Source: Candidatus Saccharimonadota bacterium (GTDB taxonomy: Bacteria; Patescibacteriota; Gracilibacteria; BD1-5; UBA2023). Taken from it: a DNA stretch of 32,000 bases. Numbering within the stretch: position 1 is the stretch's first letter; the number at the start of each line of letters is the position of its first letter. The stretch is taken from assembly GCA_963706795.1 (NCBI GenBank), contig OY970170.1:840001-872000 (forward strand). Direction: 5' to 3'. The translations under genes and the position numbers were made by a program. This document shows, in pieces, positions 8,231 to 31,179 of this stretch. Under the pieces are notes generated by a model, which saw nothing but the letters and a program-made list of their open reading frames with translations, made no database searches and was not told the DNA's origin.

Positions 8231-10495
8231 TTATTCGTCCGTCGATCTTTCTGCTAGAAATAGACATTTTCCAAGGATAGTCAGCATTAGCTCACGTTGC
8301 TTCTGTGCTGTTACGGCTGTTGGGAAATATTCTAAGATAGCATCAGTGGTAATTGAATCTTCGATAATCGAGCGTGTACCTTGATTATCGAAGATAGAAT
8401 CAATCTCATTTACTAATAGTACAAAGTCATTCCGTATGTGACTGGCGAATTCGGGGTTTGCTAGCACGAGGCTATCAAAACGCTCTTTAAGGGTTGAAAT
8501 TAACATATTTGCCATCTCTTCCAATTGGGCGGTATCGCCGAGCTCTTTGACAGCCAAAAGCCATAGACAATAGTATTTGGCAATGCCAATATGGGTTCAA
8601 TGCCTTTTCAAGTACTTCTCCCGAAGATATTTTTCAAGTATGGCTTTTGATCGGTCGAATATTTCTGTGTTCCCAGTTTTTAATCCATATAGCCCAAGGA
8701 ATCATAGAACGTCGAAGATATGTAGATTGGCATAATAGTCAGATAGCATCTCGGACGTTCCATTTCATATCACGACTGAGAGTAAACCAAGAACTTTTCG
8801 TATGTAATCTATGGCATTTGGTGTCAATGGGCTTCATCGAGATACCCTATAAGTGATTTCACCAAAATGCTTAACAATCAACGGCAAAAAGCTATCGAAC
8901 TCAATTCACTGTTTCGATCACTCCTTGAAGACCTCGGTGACGATGTCGATGGTATTTCTCAATCAGTTGAAATAAACGGTTTGTAGTGGGCTTGAATCGC
9001 CAGATAGAACTGTCCAGATAACCCCTCTATTCATTGAAAGATTAGTCCACAAAGCTTGTATGAGTTTGTTTAGGAATGCAGATGGGTCTACGCCTCGCTC
9101 TTTTGCTGATGTTATGAGCAAAAGATGGCTTTTTAGGGATTCCCATAAGATTCTATCGTAACCCCATAGGTCTGTTGTTGCTAGCTTCAGAATAAGTCCA
9201 ACGTAGACCTTGTGTATTTCCAGCGATGTCTTACCCGTTTTAATCTCCCAAGCTACAAGGAATGTTAACTTATCCAATAAGGTGTCTATATGCCCTAGGT
9301 TAACCTTTTTCGATATGAGTAAATTAATGAGCACTGCAGCATTCTCTTTCCACTGAAATAGTCATTCTTCGTTTCAGATTACTAGTAGTTTTTCGAACAA
9401 TCCAGCATACCTCATTAGCGCGTTCTCTAGGATGGGATTTGAATTCGGGAATATAGTTCCGGAATAGCGCACTTCAAACAGCTTATCCAGTGCGATTCTG
9501 TATAGTTTGAGACTTTCCAGTATGGCGTATACGTCACCCCTCTTAGCGTTTGAAAGTGCCAGATCTTCAAGCCTCTCGAAAAATCGGCTCAATAATCAAT
9601 CAATTTCAGAATCGTGGCTTCAGAGATAGTCTAGGTTGGGAATTAGTTTTATCTTTCAGTAAGCATCCATTAGATGGCAGAAGCACCTGCCGATGAGTCT
9701 TATATAATCCCTTGCAAGTGTGTATTCTTGAATGCCAATAAGTTTTTGCGTTCAATCAAATATGGATTCTAGCTTGTACCATCACGTATTGATGATTCTA
9801 TCTCAGTAACTTATCGGATCGAAAGATTGTTTATCGATGTCGGGTGTATTGAGGTACTGGACAAGGGATTTTTCATACTTGCTCAACGTCCGAATTATCC
9901 GAACGAAATATTCTTCTGCATCAGTAATTATTCAATGCGGTGATAGTTTCTGACTCGTGTTGTAAAAGGAGAAGAGGACTAGCCAGATTACGAATGATTC
10001 AACTCAGATAGATAGGGGTAGTAATATTCGATCTGGGCAAGCATTTAGAAAAAGAAAGTTATTGCCTCATAGAAAGAGGAATATCAACGTGAATATTCCT
10101 ATCGTCCCAGCTACATAATAGGTCTTTTTGTCGTTATTTGCATCAAAGATAACCGCTAGTGGCGCATAAGTTGCGAAACTTTGGATATAGAAAAAATGGA
10201 TGGTCAGAAGAAGTGCTAATATTGATCAGAACATTGAGCCTACCGTGGTGAAGTAGGCTGAAACATCTATCATATGGAAAAAATTGCGCCAAACCGAAAG
10301 TCCAATCAATAATAACGTCGTTAAAAATTGAATGAGTGTTAGAAATCTAAATCAGTTCTCAAATATGGAAGATATCAGCAGTTTAATTTGAAACCACTTA
10401 GTCCTTGTTTTGTTCCAAAGATCAACTTTAATAACTACTGTGTTAGCTTTGTGTTTCTGGTAGAAATTCACAACATCTTTGATGTATTTGCGCAT
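8231..10495 (-). CDS. large orphan membrane protein, 754 aa: about 4 N-terminal TM helices plus a roughly 560-aa alpha-helical soluble domain
   Basis: A single 755-codon frame from ATG 10495 to TAA 8231, with about 20 in-frame TGAs. It unites track ORFs 8231..8557, 8963..9334 and 9374..9592, all in the same frame. Hydrophobic segments: FLTLIQFLTTLLLIGLSVW, VGSMFGSILALLLTIHFFYI, YYVAGTIGIFTLIFLFLGG, ESFVIWLVLFSF. Confidence 0.7.
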
Positions 10496-11850: not shown

Positions 11851-13737
11851 ATGGTGAATTCAAAAAAGTTTTCACAAACTACTCAAACTCCAATCTTTGC
11901 CTACCTTCGTAGGAGTACAAAAAAGGCTGAGCAGGAAAACTCTCTCATTCAGCAAGAAGATGGTATTCAAAGCCTCATCAGAAGGTTGGGTCTTGATGCT
12001 GATTCTGTGCGCTATTTTGCTGAAAGCCGGAGCGGATTTGAGAATAAGAAACGTCCAGAATGGACGGCGATGATGAGCGAGATTGATAAACTTGAAACAC
12101 CGTGCGTACTATTAGCACGTGATATTTCTCGTCTTTCTCGCAATCCTACGGATTCTCAGAAGATAATGGATCGACTCTATGGGGATAACAAGAAAAGACG
12201 GGTAATCGAGAAAATGTATTGTCTCGATTATGAAAATGTCAAAGAGTGGAATAAGGGTACAGATAAAGAAGAGGTGCACAGGGCTCTTTCTGCAAGCTAC
12301 TATGACAGCTTGGAGACTCGCAGGAAATCTATAGGTGGAATCCTTTTGCGACTAGAAGACGACCAGTTTCCATATGCCGCTCCAAAGGGACTTGATAAAA
12401 TCTCTCATCTCTGAAAAACCATTCTGAAACAGAATGAAAAAATGCCAATCGTCAGAAGAGCATTTGAAATGAAGACGGAGGGAAAGAGTCATAAAGAGAT
12501 ATCCAAATATCTTAAACAGTATGGGGATATCCGTATTTGAGATAGGACGTTAACGGATAGGTTATTCACCTACGAAGTTTATATTGGTAAATATACCGAG
12601 AAAAATACTGGAAAGCGCGTCACGAGCTTGGCATTTTTCGAAGGAAGACCACCCATTTCTCCTGAGTTATGGGATAGGGTACAAAAATGCTTAGGGAAGA
12701 AGAATTCTCAGTATTGAGAGGGGCAAAAAGATGATGTTATTGCTGAAAAGCTGAGAACTGAAAGTGGTAAGCGTATGTCTAAGTATTTCGCTAAGTGAAA
12801 GTATGCCCAGTACAAGAACACGATGGAGAAAATACACATAGCGGAAAAGGAAATCTTGAATCATTTTCAAAATACGCTTATTGAATTCCTTAATGATGCT
12901 TGGAAAAGGAATAGAAAGAAGGTGCGACGAAATATCAAATCCAGCTTCGAGTCATTATGTTTGGAAGAGGGATTGAAAGTTGTAGATAAGCCTGAGTGGA
13001 TAGCTTTCTTTCGTGAAGAGATTGAAATTAAATCGTCTTCACATTTGGAAAAACTCATAATATTGATTTGAAAAAATTCCTTGGAACGAAAGACAAAGAA
13101 TGATCCCTATCCCACCAAAGAAGAGTGTCTTGAGGCATCTAATAGCCTATGAATTGATCTGTGAGGAAGGGGACTCAAAGAGTACATCGAATATGAAGTA
13201 TGAAAAAGGCATATTGATGAGTTTGTGAACGCGGTAAAGAAAGAATTCAAGGAAAAAACCAAGGATTCTCGCAATATAATCGAGGATCAGTTGGTGGAAT
13301 TGCGCAAAAGAAAGGTTGGACTTGAAGAAGAAAGGAAGAGTTATAGAAAGAAAGCCCCAATAATGGGCTATTCGTTTGAAGAAATTAAAGAGACTACCGA
13401 AGAATACGATACCAATATTTCCCTGCTTGATTCAGAGATAGCAGAAGTGTCGCAGTCTACCCATATGGATAAATACTTAGAGCGGATTCCAGAAATATTG
13501 TGTTCGACTTTCGAACTCGCCAATTCTACCCTTACGGAAGCGGAGAAAGGTGAAAAGAAGGAAAATTTACTGAAGCTACTGGAATTAACCACTTTCGAAC
13601 TCACTGTAAACGACAAAAAAGAGCTTAAAGTAAAGCTCTTTGATGTACTAGATAGGCTAGTTTCCGATGATAAGTCACTATTGGAGGCACCACCCGGAGT
13701 CGAACCGGGCTACGGAGCTTTGCAGGCCCCTGCATAA
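11851..13737 (+). CDS. large serine recombinase (integrase), 628 aa
   Basis: N-terminal resolvase catalytic motifs are present (FAYLRRSTKKAEQENSLIQQ and DISRLSRN). A recombinase-domain region follows (PIVRRAFEMKTEGKSHKEISKYL.., ISPELWDRVQ), then a long coiled-coil-like Glu/Lys-rich C-terminus. Track ORFs 11851..12414, 12823..13071 and 13225..13737 share one frame joined by 8 TGAs. TAA stop at 13735-13737. Confidence 0.85.
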
Positions 13738-13755
13738 CCGATCTGCCATGGCGCC
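13682..13755 (-). tRNA. tRNA-Cys: tRNA-Cys (anticodon GCA), 74 nt, CCA encoded
   Basis: GGCGCCA-UG-GCA..UGC-A-GGGGC-CUGCAAA-GCUCC-GUAG-CCCGG-UUCGACU-CCGGG-UGGUGCC-U-CCA. Manual cloverleaf gives a 7-bp acceptor (one G.U), a 5-bp anticodon stem, a 5-bp T stem and a canonical UUCGA T-loop. Confidence 0.9.
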
Positions 13756-27594: not shown

Positions 27595-29072
<1,478 letters not shown>

Positions 29073-29193
29073 ATCTGTATCTGACACTGATCCGATCAAC
29101 CATGCTCTGCATCAAGATCTACAATCAGACTCTGTCTCTTTTTCTCTCAAGGAATCAACTTCGTCTTCTGGTGTGTGAGGTAAGAGCATTACC

Positions 29194-29227
29194 AAAAAAA
29201 CTTCCACTCTGTGTGGAAGTTTTTTTA
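29194..29227. terminator. bidirectional intrinsic terminator closing the 16S transcription unit and the convergent metal module
   Basis: AAAAAAACTTCCAC-TCTG-TGTGGAAGTTTTTTT. Confidence 0.7.
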
Positions 29228-29238
29228 TGGTTTCTGAA

Positions 29239-29436
29239 TTATCTTTGGCTGTAAATATCTGCTGAATGCGCATTTCCAGACATAATTTGTTCCATTCGGA
29301 GCATATCTGCGCGCATAGCAAATGTACCCCAGATCATCACGATCGTACAGACTGCGCATGAGAGGATGCAGGCAATGGTGATATATGGATGGCAACCAAG
29401 AGAGACGGTGCTTGTTTTTTCGCAAGAAGATGACAT
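29239..29436 (-). CDS. small Cys-rich membrane protein, 65 aa
   Basis: MSSSCEKTSTVSLGCHPYITIACILSCAVCTIVMIWGTF.. has five Cys in and around one TM segment. It starts 15 nt after the upstream gene stop. TAA stop. Confidence 0.5.
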   Translation of the reverse strand: MSSSCEKTSTVSLGCHPYITIACILSCAVCTIVMIWGTFAMRADMLRMEQIMSGNAHSADIYSQR

Positions 29437-29451
29437 AGAATTATGTAAAAA

Positions 29452-29934
29452 TTAGTCGTGATTCGTTGGCGTTTCAAGCCCTGAGGTACTATGTCCGTGT
29501 GGTGCAAAATCGGTATTTTCTAAGAAGAAATATATACCAATTGTGATCGCAAATACCGCAAGACCCGAGCATAGCATGTATTTGTAGTCTTTCTTGTCCC
29601 AAGAATAATTATTGATCTTTGCAAACAGAAGAAGTGAGAGTATGAATCCAGTAGGAACTATCATGAGACTTCGTTCAGGCGAATCTGGGAAATGTTGCAG
29701 GCCTCATGTAAATGCACCAATGCTTATAGCCATCAATGCACCGAGCCCAATGGTTTCCCAAGTATTTTGTGAGCTCTCTTCATAGAGTACCCCAATCACA
29801 AAACAAAATACTCAAAATGCTCCAGTAAGCAGAGAACGTGACTCCGAGAAGAATCCGTGAGATATTGCCCCAGTAATGAAGCTGATCCCTAAGTACTTAC
29901 TGATATTTGAAAAATGCGCCCGTGAAAAATTCAT
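29452..29934 (-). CDS. integral membrane protein with a His-rich C-terminal tail, 160 aa
   Basis: Track ORF 29452..29664 extends in frame through 2 TGAs to ATG 29934, 10 nt after the csoR stop. About 4 TM segments. Tail is ..APHGHSTSGLETPTNHD. Confidence 0.6.
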
Positions 29935-29944
29935 AATCTAAAAG

Positions 29945-30217
29945 TTATTTTCGTGTTACTACGTCCCAAGTGCGTACAAGTTCATCGATAAAATCTTCTT
30001 TTGCCTTTCCACCTTCGGTGAGAGCTTTTGTTCCGCAGCAGGCAAGGTGGTTCTTGAGGAGTTCGCGATTTGCACTCTGCAATAGACCCATGGACGCGTT
30101 GATCTGGTGGGCGATATCGGCACAGTACACGTCATTCTCGATCATTTCTTGAACTTTTGCAAGTGTGCCCAGTGCTTTCTTGATGCTGAGATTTATCCGA
30201 TCTTTGTTGTGAAGCAT
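29945..30217 (-). CDS. csoR: CsoR/RcnR-family metal-sensing transcriptional repressor, Cu(I)-type ligand set, 90 aa
   Basis: VYCADIAHQINA.....LLKNHLACC gives Cys32 / His57 / Cys61, fitting the x-C-H-C fingerprint of copper-sensing CsoR. Confidence 0.85.
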   Translation of the reverse strand: MLHNKDRINLSIKKALGTLAKVQEMIENDVYCADIAHQINASMGLLQSANRELLKNHLACCGTKALTEGGKAKEDFIDELVRTWDVVTRK

Positions 30218-30234
30218 ATTGAAATATAAATTGA

Positions 30235-30249
30235 AAACCCCTATGGTTT
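30235..30249. promoter_or_regulatory. candidate CsoR operator half-palindrome upstream of csoR
   Basis: AAACC-CCTAT-GGTTT. Its reverse complement shares AACCATAGGG with the palindrome at 30416-30434. Confidence 0.35.
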
Positions 30250-30310
30250 GAGTATCCTCGATAAGCTTTTTAGCGAAAGTAGCTCCCGAAAGGGAGCTTT
30301 TTATGTGCGA

Positions 30311-30394
30311 CTACTTGTTGCCGCATGCGCATCCAGAACCGCAAGAACAAGTCTCGCAGGTACATGGATTGCATGTGCATTTTTCTGTTTTCAT
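30311..30394 (-). CDS. metallothionein-like Cys-rich peptide, 27 aa
   Basis: MKTEKCTCNPCTCETCSCGSGCACGNK: 8 Cys in 27 residues as CxC/CxxC pairs. Intact ATG and TAG. Lies directly upstream of csoR on the same strand. Confidence 0.6.
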   Translation of the reverse strand: MKTEKCTCNPCTCETCSCGSGCACGNK

Positions 30395-30415
30395 AGATAG
30401 CTTGTTGAGAATACC

Positions 30416-30434
30416 TAACCATAGGGTATGGTTA
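30416..30434. promoter_or_regulatory. candidate CsoR operator: 19-bp palindrome upstream of the metallothionein-like gene
   Basis: TAACCATA-GGG-TATGGTTA, with 8-bp perfect arms around a G tract, 22 nt upstream of the ATG at 30394. Confidence 0.45.
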
Positions 30435-30523
30435 CTTTAGGGTTTATTAGATTGATTGCAAAAGATTTTTGTTGTGAGTGTGAGTGATTTGAGAATCAAT
30501 TAAATTATGCGTATTTTTTTAAA

Positions 30524-30552
30524 GAACCCCCTCTTCTGTATAGAAGAGGGGG
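30524..30552 (-). terminator. intrinsic terminator
   Basis: AACCCCCTCTTCT-GTAT-AGAAGAGGGGGTT, a 13-bp stem, downstream of the 30578..30985 gene. Confidence 0.65.
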
Positions 30553-30577: not shown

Positions 30578-30985
30578 TTACATCCCCAGCACCTTGTTCA
30601 TTGCATCGATCATTGCTGTTTCGAGCGTATGAGAAGGTGAATTGCCCAGTATGGCCTGGACGGCAAAGCCACGATTCAAAAAGAGTGCGTAGTCTTCGAC
30701 ATTATTTGATATAGTCGACAAATCCATTGCCAACAAGAGGATTGTTGTGCTGAGTGCCACTTTAATTTGTTCGGCTATATCTTTTGTTAGCAATTTTTCT
30801 CCGCCATTCCCATTGTAGAAGTGCATGAGATTTTGGAACTTTTCTTCCGCATTAGGTAATACATTGATTGCATCAAATATTGCCTGTAGATCATCATTTC
30901 TTACCTGCATGAGATCTAAGGCATGATTTACCGAAATATTATTTGCGGTACAAAATTCCTTGATCCTATTAAATGAATGTGTCAT
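30578..30985 (-). CDS. hypothetical protein, 135 aa
   Basis: ATG 30985 preceded by AAGGAGA 7 nt upstream. The longer track start (31078) lacks an SD and would overlap the promoter motif. TAA stop. Confidence 0.55.
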   Translation of the reverse strand: MTHSFNRIKEFCTANNISVNHALDLMQVRNDDLQAIFDAINVLPNAEEKFQNLMHFYNGNGGEKLLTKDIAEQIKVALSTTILLLAMDLSTISNNVEDYALFLNRGFAVQAILGNSPSHTLETAMIDAMNKVLGM

Positions 30986-31019
30986 TTTTTCTCCTTCTGC
31001 CACTTGGGCTTTTTGTTTA

Positions 31020-31058
31020 GGTAGGATATTTATAATAAAAATACACAGAAAGTCAAAG
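31020..31058 (-). promoter_or_regulatory. candidate promoter, copy 1 of a duplicated motif
   Basis: Minus strand: TTGACT-N16-TATAAA within CTTTGACTTTCTGTGTATTTTTATTATAAATATCCTACC. Shares GGTAG / TTTATAATAAAAAT / GTCAAA blocks with 31427..31465. Confidence 0.5.
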
Positions 31059-31179
31059 ATGCTCGTGCCCCGAGACATAAAAAATCTCTCTCAAATATTT
31101 GAGAGAGATTTTACATATCACAGCTTCTCTGCCACCTTTGCCTCGGTTGTTTTGCCGAGTAGCCTAGAAAATTGCTGTT

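Follow-up and report, generated by a model that had tools for sequence, protein, structure and literature searches.

In a 32,000-nucleotide stretch of contig OY970170.1 (hereafter the window, whose own position numbers are used throughout), we describe a minus-strand operon, extending from approximately 30461 to 29194, that encodes a 27-residue cysteine-rich peptide, a 90-residue repressor of the CsoR family, and two small membrane proteins of 160 and 65 residues. The interpretation that we favor, and regard as likely, is that of a copper-responsive operon controlled by a Cu(I)-sensing CsoR, with a metallothionein-like Cu(I) buffer as its lead product and two membrane proteins that handle copper. 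The comparison was made with 42 related csoR loci from species-representative genomes (43 csoR loci in the operator comparison, the window among them). A preliminary description of the same DNA had reported the peptide, csoR, the 160- and 65-residue proteins, a palindrome, a half-site, and a terminator, and each of these elements was indeed found on the minus strand in the place assigned to it.

The regulator encoded by csoR (29945..30217, minus strand) is identified by its match to PF02583 (CsoR/RcnR), at 58.3 bits and E 1e-15 where the cutoff is 22.8. Alignment of 29 homologues shows no variation at Y31, C32, H57, or C61 and near-invariance (at least 90%) at E79. The protein thereby has the x-C-H-C fingerprint of the Cu(I)-sensing subgroup, with one Cys in helix α2 and, in α2′, a His and a Cys spaced by four residues. 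The closest solved structures are the Cu(I) CsoRs 2hh7 (E 4e-10), 4adz, and 4m1p, from Mycobacterium tuberculosis, Streptomyces lividans, and Geobacillus, and the ligand Cys, His, and Cys residues of these structures, along with the adjacent Tyr, align with C32, H57, C61, and Y31 of the window protein; InrS, a nickel sensor, scores far worse (0.0056). The allosteric network of Cu(I) CsoRs comprises a second-shell Tyr beside the ligand Cys and a Glu in helix α3, and when the window protein is aligned to S. lividans CsoR without gaps, Tyr and Glu stand opposite Y31 and E79. The conserved Gln is also present (Q38). Taken together, these observations support the earlier proposal of a Cu(I)-type CsoR with a C-H-C ligand set, and by sequence that is what we take the regulator to be.

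With respect to DNA recognition, the predicted CsoR operator, AACCATACCCTATGGTTAGGTAT (30411..30433, minus strand), is assigned from its conservation in related loci and from the absence of chance matches. A consensus of the form TATAACCATACC[C/A]TATGGT[T/A][A/T]GGTAT occurs in exactly one copy in 41 of the 43 csoR loci and is invariably positioned before the first operon gene, whether this is the peptide gene (25 loci, namely the window and 24 relatives), copZ (L026 and L040), or csoR itself (the remainder). The operator is unique in the window, with 0 matches expected from window shuffles, and in all 25 peptide-bearing loci the peptide gene lies 17 nt past it (16 intervening bases). The perfect 19-bp palindrome (30416..30434) that had been put forward as a CsoR operator falls mostly inside this element, and its candidacy is strengthened by the single copy per locus and the placement at the operon promoter. 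In terms of architecture, the operator reads ATAC-CC-CTAT-GG-TTAG-GTAT. Its AT-rich inverted repeats, ATAC and GTAT, have 11 bp between them (the ATAC-N11-GTAT dyad that overlaps the palindrome) and flank a pair of short G/C tracts spaced by 3 bases. As judged from these features, it fits the G/C-tract pseudopalindromic architecture of type 2 CsoR sites (PMC3902906). The element spans ~24 bp and overlaps the −10/+1 region of a predicted promoter, whose putative −35 box (TTGCAA, 30456..30461) and −10 box (TAAAGT, 30434..30439, 16 nt past the −35 box and abutting the operator) are read on the minus strand. In most related loci, a hexamer of the TTGC(T/A) type is equally distant from the operator, and relatives have TAGTAT, TAATAT, or TATTAT at the place of TAAAGT.

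A scan of metagenomes with the 16-nt operator core returned mostly chance matches in unrelated DNA, with true sites in 4 of 80 fetched loci. All four of these full-consensus sites are followed by a peptide gene 39–51 nt downstream, and in the three contigs long enough to show it, csoR follows at about +215. Separately, at ~3102 of one metagenome contig (Ga0180007_10002926, L048), a 20-bp palindrome, ACCATACC-CTAT-GGTATGGT, is the same as a Gracilibacteria operator variant. It is situated 20 nt from the start of an open reading frame (ORF) whose product looks, by eye, like a TetR-type regulator. The surrounding DNA is unrelated and has 49% GC, and the match is probably a coincidence.

A second conserved element lies in the AT-rich spacer between the peptide gene and csoR (30235..30256, minus strand), where a −10-like box, GATACT (30251..30256), is followed by AAACCATAGGGGTTT (30235..30249). 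Its columns are invariant or near-invariant over 21 spacers, which upholds the earlier suggestion of a half-site before csoR. The sequence AAACCATAGGGGTTT bears the operator core CCCTATGG (CCCTATG) in the opposite orientation, and the box ahead of it takes the form TATAC(T/C) in the family. From its sequence, this element is probably an internal csoR promoter combined with an auxiliary CsoR site. No Rfam family was found for the spacer, its hairpin included, or for the terminators.

Genetic code 25, in which TGA is read as Gly, applies throughout the window. When TGA is treated as a sense codon, the summed length of ORFs of at least 100 residues rises from 6341 to 19538 residues, and TGA codons in the window fall at conserved Gly positions, as in the PheS motif GWAF-x-FGLERL and the HtrA motif NLK-x-EVVGINT. 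The gene for the 160-residue protein (29452..29934, minus strand) contains two in-frame TGA codons (29812..29814 and 29704..29706), which correspond to G41 and the near-invariant G77 of its family. Under the standard bacterial code (table 11) it is split into pieces of 40, 31, and 70 residues, so that the 160-residue protein of the preliminary description stands as the product of a single gene only with the recoding that the description had overlooked. In relatives L010 and L021, TGA also occupies a conserved Gly column of the small peptide. Since TGA as sense lengthens the ORFs and TGA codons fall on conserved glycines, the window is assigned, on sequence grounds, to a genome of the Gracilibacteria (candidate phyla radiation, CPR) that uses code 25. 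Consistent with this assignment, all 42 related loci are from Gracilibacteria, some of them in mislabelled bins. The csoR gene of the window contains no TGA, and the only tRNA gene in the window is that for tRNA-Cys.

Two further observations concern the labels and translations of public Gracilibacteria data. Several bins named 'Candidatus Peribacteria' hold csoR loci typical of Gracilibacteria together with in-frame TGA (L005 and L008, both on contig CAZQUZ010000010.1, and L021, L028, L030, and L038), and their taxonomic labels look wrong. In addition, public protein predictions (P0005, P0019, P0021, P0039, P0067, and others) show Trp where the family consensus has Gly, or stop early, which likely results from translation of TGA by table 4 or table 11. 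Because public proteins are mistranslated at TGA in this way, homology searches in Gracilibacteria are degraded.

The first gene of the operon (30311..30394, minus strand) is a conserved ORF whose product, MKTEKCTCNPCTCETCSCGSGCACGNK, has 8 Cys in 27 residues (2.8 kDa), spaced as CxCx2CxCx2CxCx3CxC, and is devoid of Phe, Tyr, Trp, and His. Copies of the peptide were collected by tblastn and ORF scans of the loci under code 25 and by a local profile search, and the resulting profile recovers every copy. In this manner, 24 of the 42 genome loci were found to have a Cys-rich ORF of 24–37 codons that precedes csoR by ~175 nt, and 4 metagenome loci have a Cys-rich ORF in the corresponding position. 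Six Cys columns of the family are invariant and two others are conserved to at least 90%, and the intervening residues vary. At the DNA level, the Cys codons alternate between TGC and TGT, and one conserved Gly column uses GGA, GGG, or TGA. The synonymous Cys codons and the TGA at a Gly column argue that the peptide is under selection as a translated product in code 25, and we take the 27-codon ORF, on this comparative evidence, to be the translated gene that the preliminary description had proposed. The conserved N-terminus is KCxCxPCxC, the commonest family form ends in CSCGDG[ST]CCN, and the major form is MTTNKCTCNPCTCKTCSCGDGTCCN.

No family peptide is present among ~15 billion predicted proteins, which indicates that this family has never been called as a gene; gene callers missed it because it has fewer than 30 codons and lies in genomes that recode TGA. 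The lack of a Shine-Dalgarno sequence before the peptide ORF is uninformative, since no gene in the window has one. With respect to class, the peptide has the general attributes of metallothioneins, namely small size, ~30% Cys in CxC/CxxC arrangements, and no aromatic residues. Two other readings of the ORF were discarded. A precursor of a ribosomally synthesized and post-translationally modified peptide is at odds with the absence of a maturase or radical S-adenosylmethionine gene nearby in any locus, and longer forms of 35–50 residues, which in some loci could start from an ATG inside the operator (MVRY...), are set aside because this ATG is out of frame in the window and in most loci.

Just 3′ of the peptide stop codon is a hairpin (30281..30298, minus strand; −14.7 kcal/mol, z −2.9) that has a counterpart at the corresponding position in every peptide-bearing locus, the stems being of at least seven different sequences. 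This conservation was seen by folding each sequence separately, as the divergent stems misalign. We infer that the hairpin serves as a partial terminator or an mRNA 3′ stabiliser that would raise peptide output relative to that of the repressor.

Cys-rich segments also occur outside the free peptide, as N-termini that are followed by a transmembrane (TM) helix and fused to DUF305 proteins and to one multicopper oxidase (for example MVTKKTESCTCVNCKCDPCEC). They begin at 4927 in L014, 4735 in L023, 5238 in L028, 2653 in L033, 5803 in L040, and 1533 in L043.

The gene content of the related loci, to which families were assigned by tblastn with seed proteins, points to copper as the theme of the regulon. 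The order peptide, csoR, 160-residue protein, 65-residue module recurs in full in L023 and L111 and in part in L009, L033, and L034, so the gene order whose conservation had been flagged for checking is indeed found in related genomes. Behind the same operator, relatives carry a varying assortment of copper-related genes, for DUF305 proteins, CopZ, CopA with HMA and CPC motifs, an HMA-DsbD-cupredoxin protein, membrane proteins of the MauE-like and DUF6803 kinds whose tails are rich in Met, and multicopper oxidases, one of which begins with a Cys-rich stretch like the peptide. DUF305 is the domain of CopM, a copper-binding resistance protein (PMC4335983). Twelve loci (L002, L003, L006–L008, L010, L012, L013, L015, L016, L037, and L039) also encode a CusB/HlyD-like membrane-fusion protein of 647 residues with an N-terminal HGGHG motif, +0.8 to +2.8 kb from csoR, for which no resistance-nodulation-division or ATP-binding cassette partner was visible in the fetched DNA. 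CopA is found in five csoR loci, all of which are peptide-less, and none was seen within 4 kb of the peptide-bearing loci. In the window, no copA, copZ, or other copper cargo gene is present anywhere in the 32 kb, as the preliminary description had noted in proposing an ATPase-free regulon. Its extension to the whole genome is unsupported, as the genomes of several relatives have two csoR loci, one with the peptide and the other with copZ or copA.

The 160-residue protein, whose gene follows csoR after 10 nt, belongs to a family of more than 267 homologues, some of them in Proteobacteria, and lies downstream of csoR in 10 loci. Invariant in this family are H7, H26, H81, D84, and the motif TGGLQHFPDSPxRS, and the window protein carries a C-terminal His-containing tail. 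Some family members bear C-terminal DUF305 or cupredoxin domains, and on a proteobacterial contig a cupredoxin gene comes directly after, and overlaps, that of a family member. The protein scores 20.6 bits against DUF6962 (PF22285), below the cutoff of 27, and several homologues have a precomputed PF22285 match. Its structure was modelled on homologue P0067, which is 75% identical; the AlphaFold model of P0067 has five helices (predicted local distance difference test score, pLDDT, 85) in place of the four TM segments counted earlier. In this model, an outside C-terminus would place both His-containing loops and the His-containing tail outside.

The 65-residue protein (29239..29436, minus strand), encoded 15 nt further on and recognized as an ORF and from modules in relatives, has an N-terminal Cys pair followed by a single TM helix with C-x3-C-x2-C. 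Its relatives number 3 among 1.84 billion representative proteins, and homologues of the module occur in 9 Gracilibacteria csoR loci, in which the N-terminal module consists of CxnCHP, the helix C-x3-C-x2-C-T-x-VMIWG, and AMRxDM. Relatives extend this module with Met-rich linkers, DUF305, and/or an HCKxMPEMxGCEKY motif, and the bare anchor form is seen in the window, L014, and L040. The window protein has no Pfam match and no DUF305 domain, and no DUF305 remnant was found in the window. From its sequence relationships, the 65-residue protein is thus identified as the membrane anchor that relatives fuse to DUF305. The two membrane proteins are therefore not both orphans, as they had been called, given the copper-linked domains found with the 160-residue family and the DUF305 anchor module of the 65-residue protein.

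The extended form of the motif just mentioned, (D/E)xM(R/K)EHCKxMPEMxGCEKY(K/R), is found C-terminally in MauE-like proteins, in DUF305 proteins, and in small anchored ones, ~0.9–2.5 kb downstream of csoR. Motifs of this type occur in L003, L004, L009, L011, L014, L016, L022, L023, L029, L031, L033, L039, L040, and L043, and in L009 and L014 the same motif lies near the N-terminus of a multicopper oxidase, past an N-terminal hydrophobic segment. It looks like an uncharacterised Cys/Met/His metal-binding module.

Building from the established gene structure, genetic code, CsoR ligands, operator conservation, peptide coding conservation, and copper-themed cargo and fusions in relatives, we infer a mechanism in which the peptide binds Cu(I), CsoR represses at its operator, the hairpin plays a part, and the membrane proteins have the roles and topology given below. 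When copper is scarce, CsoR tetramers would occupy the operator over the −10/+1 region and keep the whole unit off, csoR included, and binding of Cu(I) in the C32-H57-C61 site would cause the repressor to leave the DNA. The first and probably most expressed product, the 27-residue peptide, would bind several Cu(I) ions as a thiolate cluster and buffer the cytoplasm in the manner of a metallothionein; it occupies the gene slot that is held by CopZ in paralogous loci. The hairpin, the internal promoter, and the half-site would together ensure a high ratio of peptide to repressor. At the membrane, the 160-residue protein would present its conserved His/Asp residues and its His-containing tail on the outside for the handling of copper, and the 65-residue protein would contribute a Cys-lined anchor. 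Because the pair of peptide and repressor recurs across relatives, these reduced bacteria may rely on a peptide to buffer copper instead of placing the usual pump beside the sensor.

Several observations weigh against this interpretation. All steps of the mechanism are predicted from sequence and structural models. The case for metal binding by the peptide consists entirely of its composition, Cys spacing, and regulation, and the peptide has no significant likeness to any known metallothionein family among Pfam models or PDB sequences. Specifically, the peptide has no PDB sequence match at E up to 10; the best Pfam matches of the peptide or its profile are Metallothio_Euk (E 0.25) and Metallothio_2 (E 4.3), with no match to the fungal metallothionein model; and the family profile finds only SmtA in the PDB (1jjd), as an 11-residue N-terminal match at E 1.5. 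The fused Cys-rich N-termini match the peptide profile weakly, one of them at iE 0.001. With respect to expression, the promoter was not called by a consensus scan of the window, and the peptide-gene hairpin is not followed by a good sense-strand U-run. In the regulator, the RLXR DNA-contact motif of helix α1 is absent, with (I/L)KKA in the family and IKKA in the window; this motif is common in CsoRs, but not universal (PMC3902906). The ligand set alone also does not fix the metal, because InrS is a C-H-C protein of the CsoR family that senses nickel (PMC3320959). Finally, a Foldseek search of the PDB with the model of the 160-residue protein gave no fold match (best E 1.2, TM-score below 0.4).

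The best placed of the alternatives, which we nonetheless hold to be unlikely, casts the peptide as a CopZ-like chaperone that passes Cu(I) to the 65- and 160-residue proteins or to a CopA encoded elsewhere. Its slot between operator and csoR is the one used by copZ in L026 and L040, and Cys-rich segments of a similar kind make up the cytoplasmic N-termini of anchored DUF305 proteins and of one multicopper oxidase, but these fused domains are only weakly similar by profile, eight Cys in CxC pairs are typical of multinuclear clusters rather than of a single-site MxCxxC motif, and a partner ATPase is encoded in no peptide-bearing locus. Slightly more doubtful still is a wider proposal, in which Gracilibacteria would possess a copper defence that is independent of a P-type ATPase and assembled from parts not seen before. 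The CxC peptide (either free, with 25–27 residues, or as the same segment fused as a cytoplasmic N-terminus), the single-pass helices lined with C-x3-C-x2-C, the extracytoplasmic Met-rich, DUF305, and HCKxMPEMxGCEKY modules, and the five-helix His/His/His/Asp membrane protein would on that proposal form an ATP-independent thiolate relay carrying Cu(I) out of the cytoplasm across the membrane, and the window would, with the same tentativeness, represent its minimal version.

It is improbable that the regulator senses a signal other than copper (Ni/Co as in InrS/RcnR, or persulfide/sulfur as in CstR), with a peptide that binds Zn, Cd, or Ni or buffers thiol redox. Precedents exist in InrS, which senses nickel with the same C-H-C ligands (PMC3320959), and in a CsoR-family protein that controls sulfur oxidation in Thermus (PMC10318464). 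In the window protein, H3, at the W position of the x-C-H-C fingerprint, recalls the His3 ligand of RcnR, and a cation diffusion facilitator transporter is encoded near a few loci; however, H3 is unconserved among the 29 homologues. H57 is invariant, unlike in CstR, which is not known to carry the corresponding His. The nearest structural relatives are Cu(I) CsoRs, and the genes carried behind this operator are, in their overwhelming majority, specific to copper (CopA, CopZ, multicopper oxidase, DUF305, cupredoxin, and Met-rich motifs).

We give very little credence to the 27-codon ORF as a regulatory leader, that is, an upstream ORF that attenuates csoR in concert with downstream hairpins and yields a functionless peptide. 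The arrangement of a short ORF followed by two conserved hairpins ahead of the next gene does recall such a leader, but the Cys residues are invariant through synonymous codon changes, and length and Cys pattern are kept over 60–84% CsoR divergence. Moreover, peptide-less loci have the same operator directly before csoR, related Cys-rich segments exist inside larger proteins, and a Cys-sensing attenuator before a metal repressor makes no sense. That the ORF and palindrome are chance features of AT-rich intergenic DNA, as the shortness of the ORF and its missing Shine-Dalgarno sequence might suggest, is refuted for practical purposes by the comparative data, with both conserved over dozens of genomes, no Shine-Dalgarno sequence before any window gene, and 0 operator matches in window shuffles.

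Returning to the reading of the operon as a CsoR-controlled copper buffer, the closest known system in logic is the RicR regulon of M. tuberculosis (ricR, mymT, mmcO, lpqS, socAB, Rv2963), in which a CsoR paralogue governs a metallothionein, a multicopper oxidase, small ORFs, and membrane proteins, with no ATPase (PMC3944814). By analogy, both systems combine a Cu(I)-type repressor of the CsoR family that regulates itself (by prediction in the window) with a small, originally unannotated Cys-rich peptide (PMC3944814, PMC7558416), and both include small ORFs and membrane proteins that carry His outside the cytoplasm (predicted in the window), with a multicopper oxidase in relatives of the window and no P-type ATPase in the unit. 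The components themselves are not orthologous, and the window's membrane proteins are unrelated to LpqS and Rv2963. The window regulator scores 46.2 bits against the RicR model (NCBIfam NF052430; cutoff 175), and we conclude from sequence comparison that it would work like RicR but is not a RicR orthologue. MymT has 53 residues, whereas the window peptide has 27, lacks His, and shows no significant similarity to it. In addition, the RicR regulon is distributed over scattered promoters, in contrast to the one operon and one operator of the window in a code-25 Gracilibacteria host.

The canonical CsoR operons (Thermus copZ-csoR-copA, Bacillus subtilis copZA, and M. tuberculosis cso) share with the window the repressor family, the ligand set, the G/C-tract pseudopalindromic operator, autoregulation, and a gene for a small Cu(I)-binding protein at the front, the autoregulation and the Cu(I) binding being predicted in the window. 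They differ in having a ferredoxin-fold CopZ in place of a CxC-rich peptide and RLXR in place of IKKA, and in the window there is no CopA in the operon, nor within 4 kb in peptide-bearing loci. As for CopM and the periplasmic copper-binding DUF305 proteins, the 65-residue module and the 160-residue family are fused to DUF305 in relatives, whereas the two window proteins consist of the membrane parts alone, without DUF305.

With respect to metallothioneins, the peptide had initially been called fungal-type, on the strength of a core shared with the Neurospora crassa copper protein. In shuffle comparisons against the fungal, SmtA, and MymT sequences, the window peptide does resemble this protein in length (25–27 residues), Cys content, absence of aromatics, and a CxCGSGCxC stretch (p ~0.0005), but the fungal Cys pattern is CxCx5CxCx3CxCx2C rather than CxCx2CxCx2CxCx3CxC. 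The CSCGSGCAC-type core is limited to a sub-branch (the window, L009, L012, and L014), the commonest family form does no better than shuffles against the fungal protein (p 0.23), and the likeness to the Neurospora core vanishes for the Agaricus homologue too. Because it is lost in the commonest form and with the Agaricus homologue, the fungal likeness is a sub-branch coincidence or convergence and not homology, and the fungal-type label is best dropped. A second partial likeness is to SmtA/BmtA, in which KCACEPCLC of SmtA resembles the family's KCxCxPCxC (shuffle p 0.004–0.008; the PDB match at E 1.5 is not significant). The peptide, however, is half the length of SmtA and lacks the zinc-finger core, His ligands, and aromatics of these proteins, and SmtA is regulated by SmtB, whereas the peptide is predicted to be regulated by CsoR.

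A review of bacterial metallothioneins describes the SmtA type and MymT only (PMC7558416). If our interpretation is true, the peptide would represent a third and much smaller type, conserved across a candidate phylum. It would also mean that pathogenic mycobacteria are not alone in having RicR-like logic, in which a CsoR paralogue directs sequestration and the handling of copper outside the cytoplasm in place of a pump. The operon would further provide an entry into the metal homeostasis of ultra-small, host-dependent CPR bacteria, and would link copper to two membrane families that are uncharacterised and to a recurrent Cys/Met/His motif.

The operon is closed by a bidirectional hairpin terminator (29194..29226; −19.8 kcal/mol, z −5.5) that faces the 3′ end of a 16S rRNA gene (27596..29071), which is convergent with the csoR operon across this terminator. 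The 16S 3′ end reads ...CTATCTCCTT. Over the interval 27596..29226, the 16S gene is followed by the terminator and the convergent csoR operon instead of a spacer, a tRNA, and a 23S gene, and for this reason the rRNA genes appear to be unlinked. Upstream of the operon lies a gene for a 166-residue protein (30578..31078, minus strand) that has no Pfam match and its own terminator (30527..30549), and that among the fetched loci is present only in a near-identical Logan contig (L001). Elsewhere in the window, a 754-residue ORF with 20 in-frame TGA codons encodes several hydrophobic stretches (8231..10495, minus strand), and a 628-residue ORF with 8 in-frame TGA codons (11851..13755) has an N-terminus that by eye resembles a serine recombinase. 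The latter ORF ends at, or overlaps, the tRNA-Cys(GCA) gene on the opposite strand, which may point to an element integrated at this tRNA gene.

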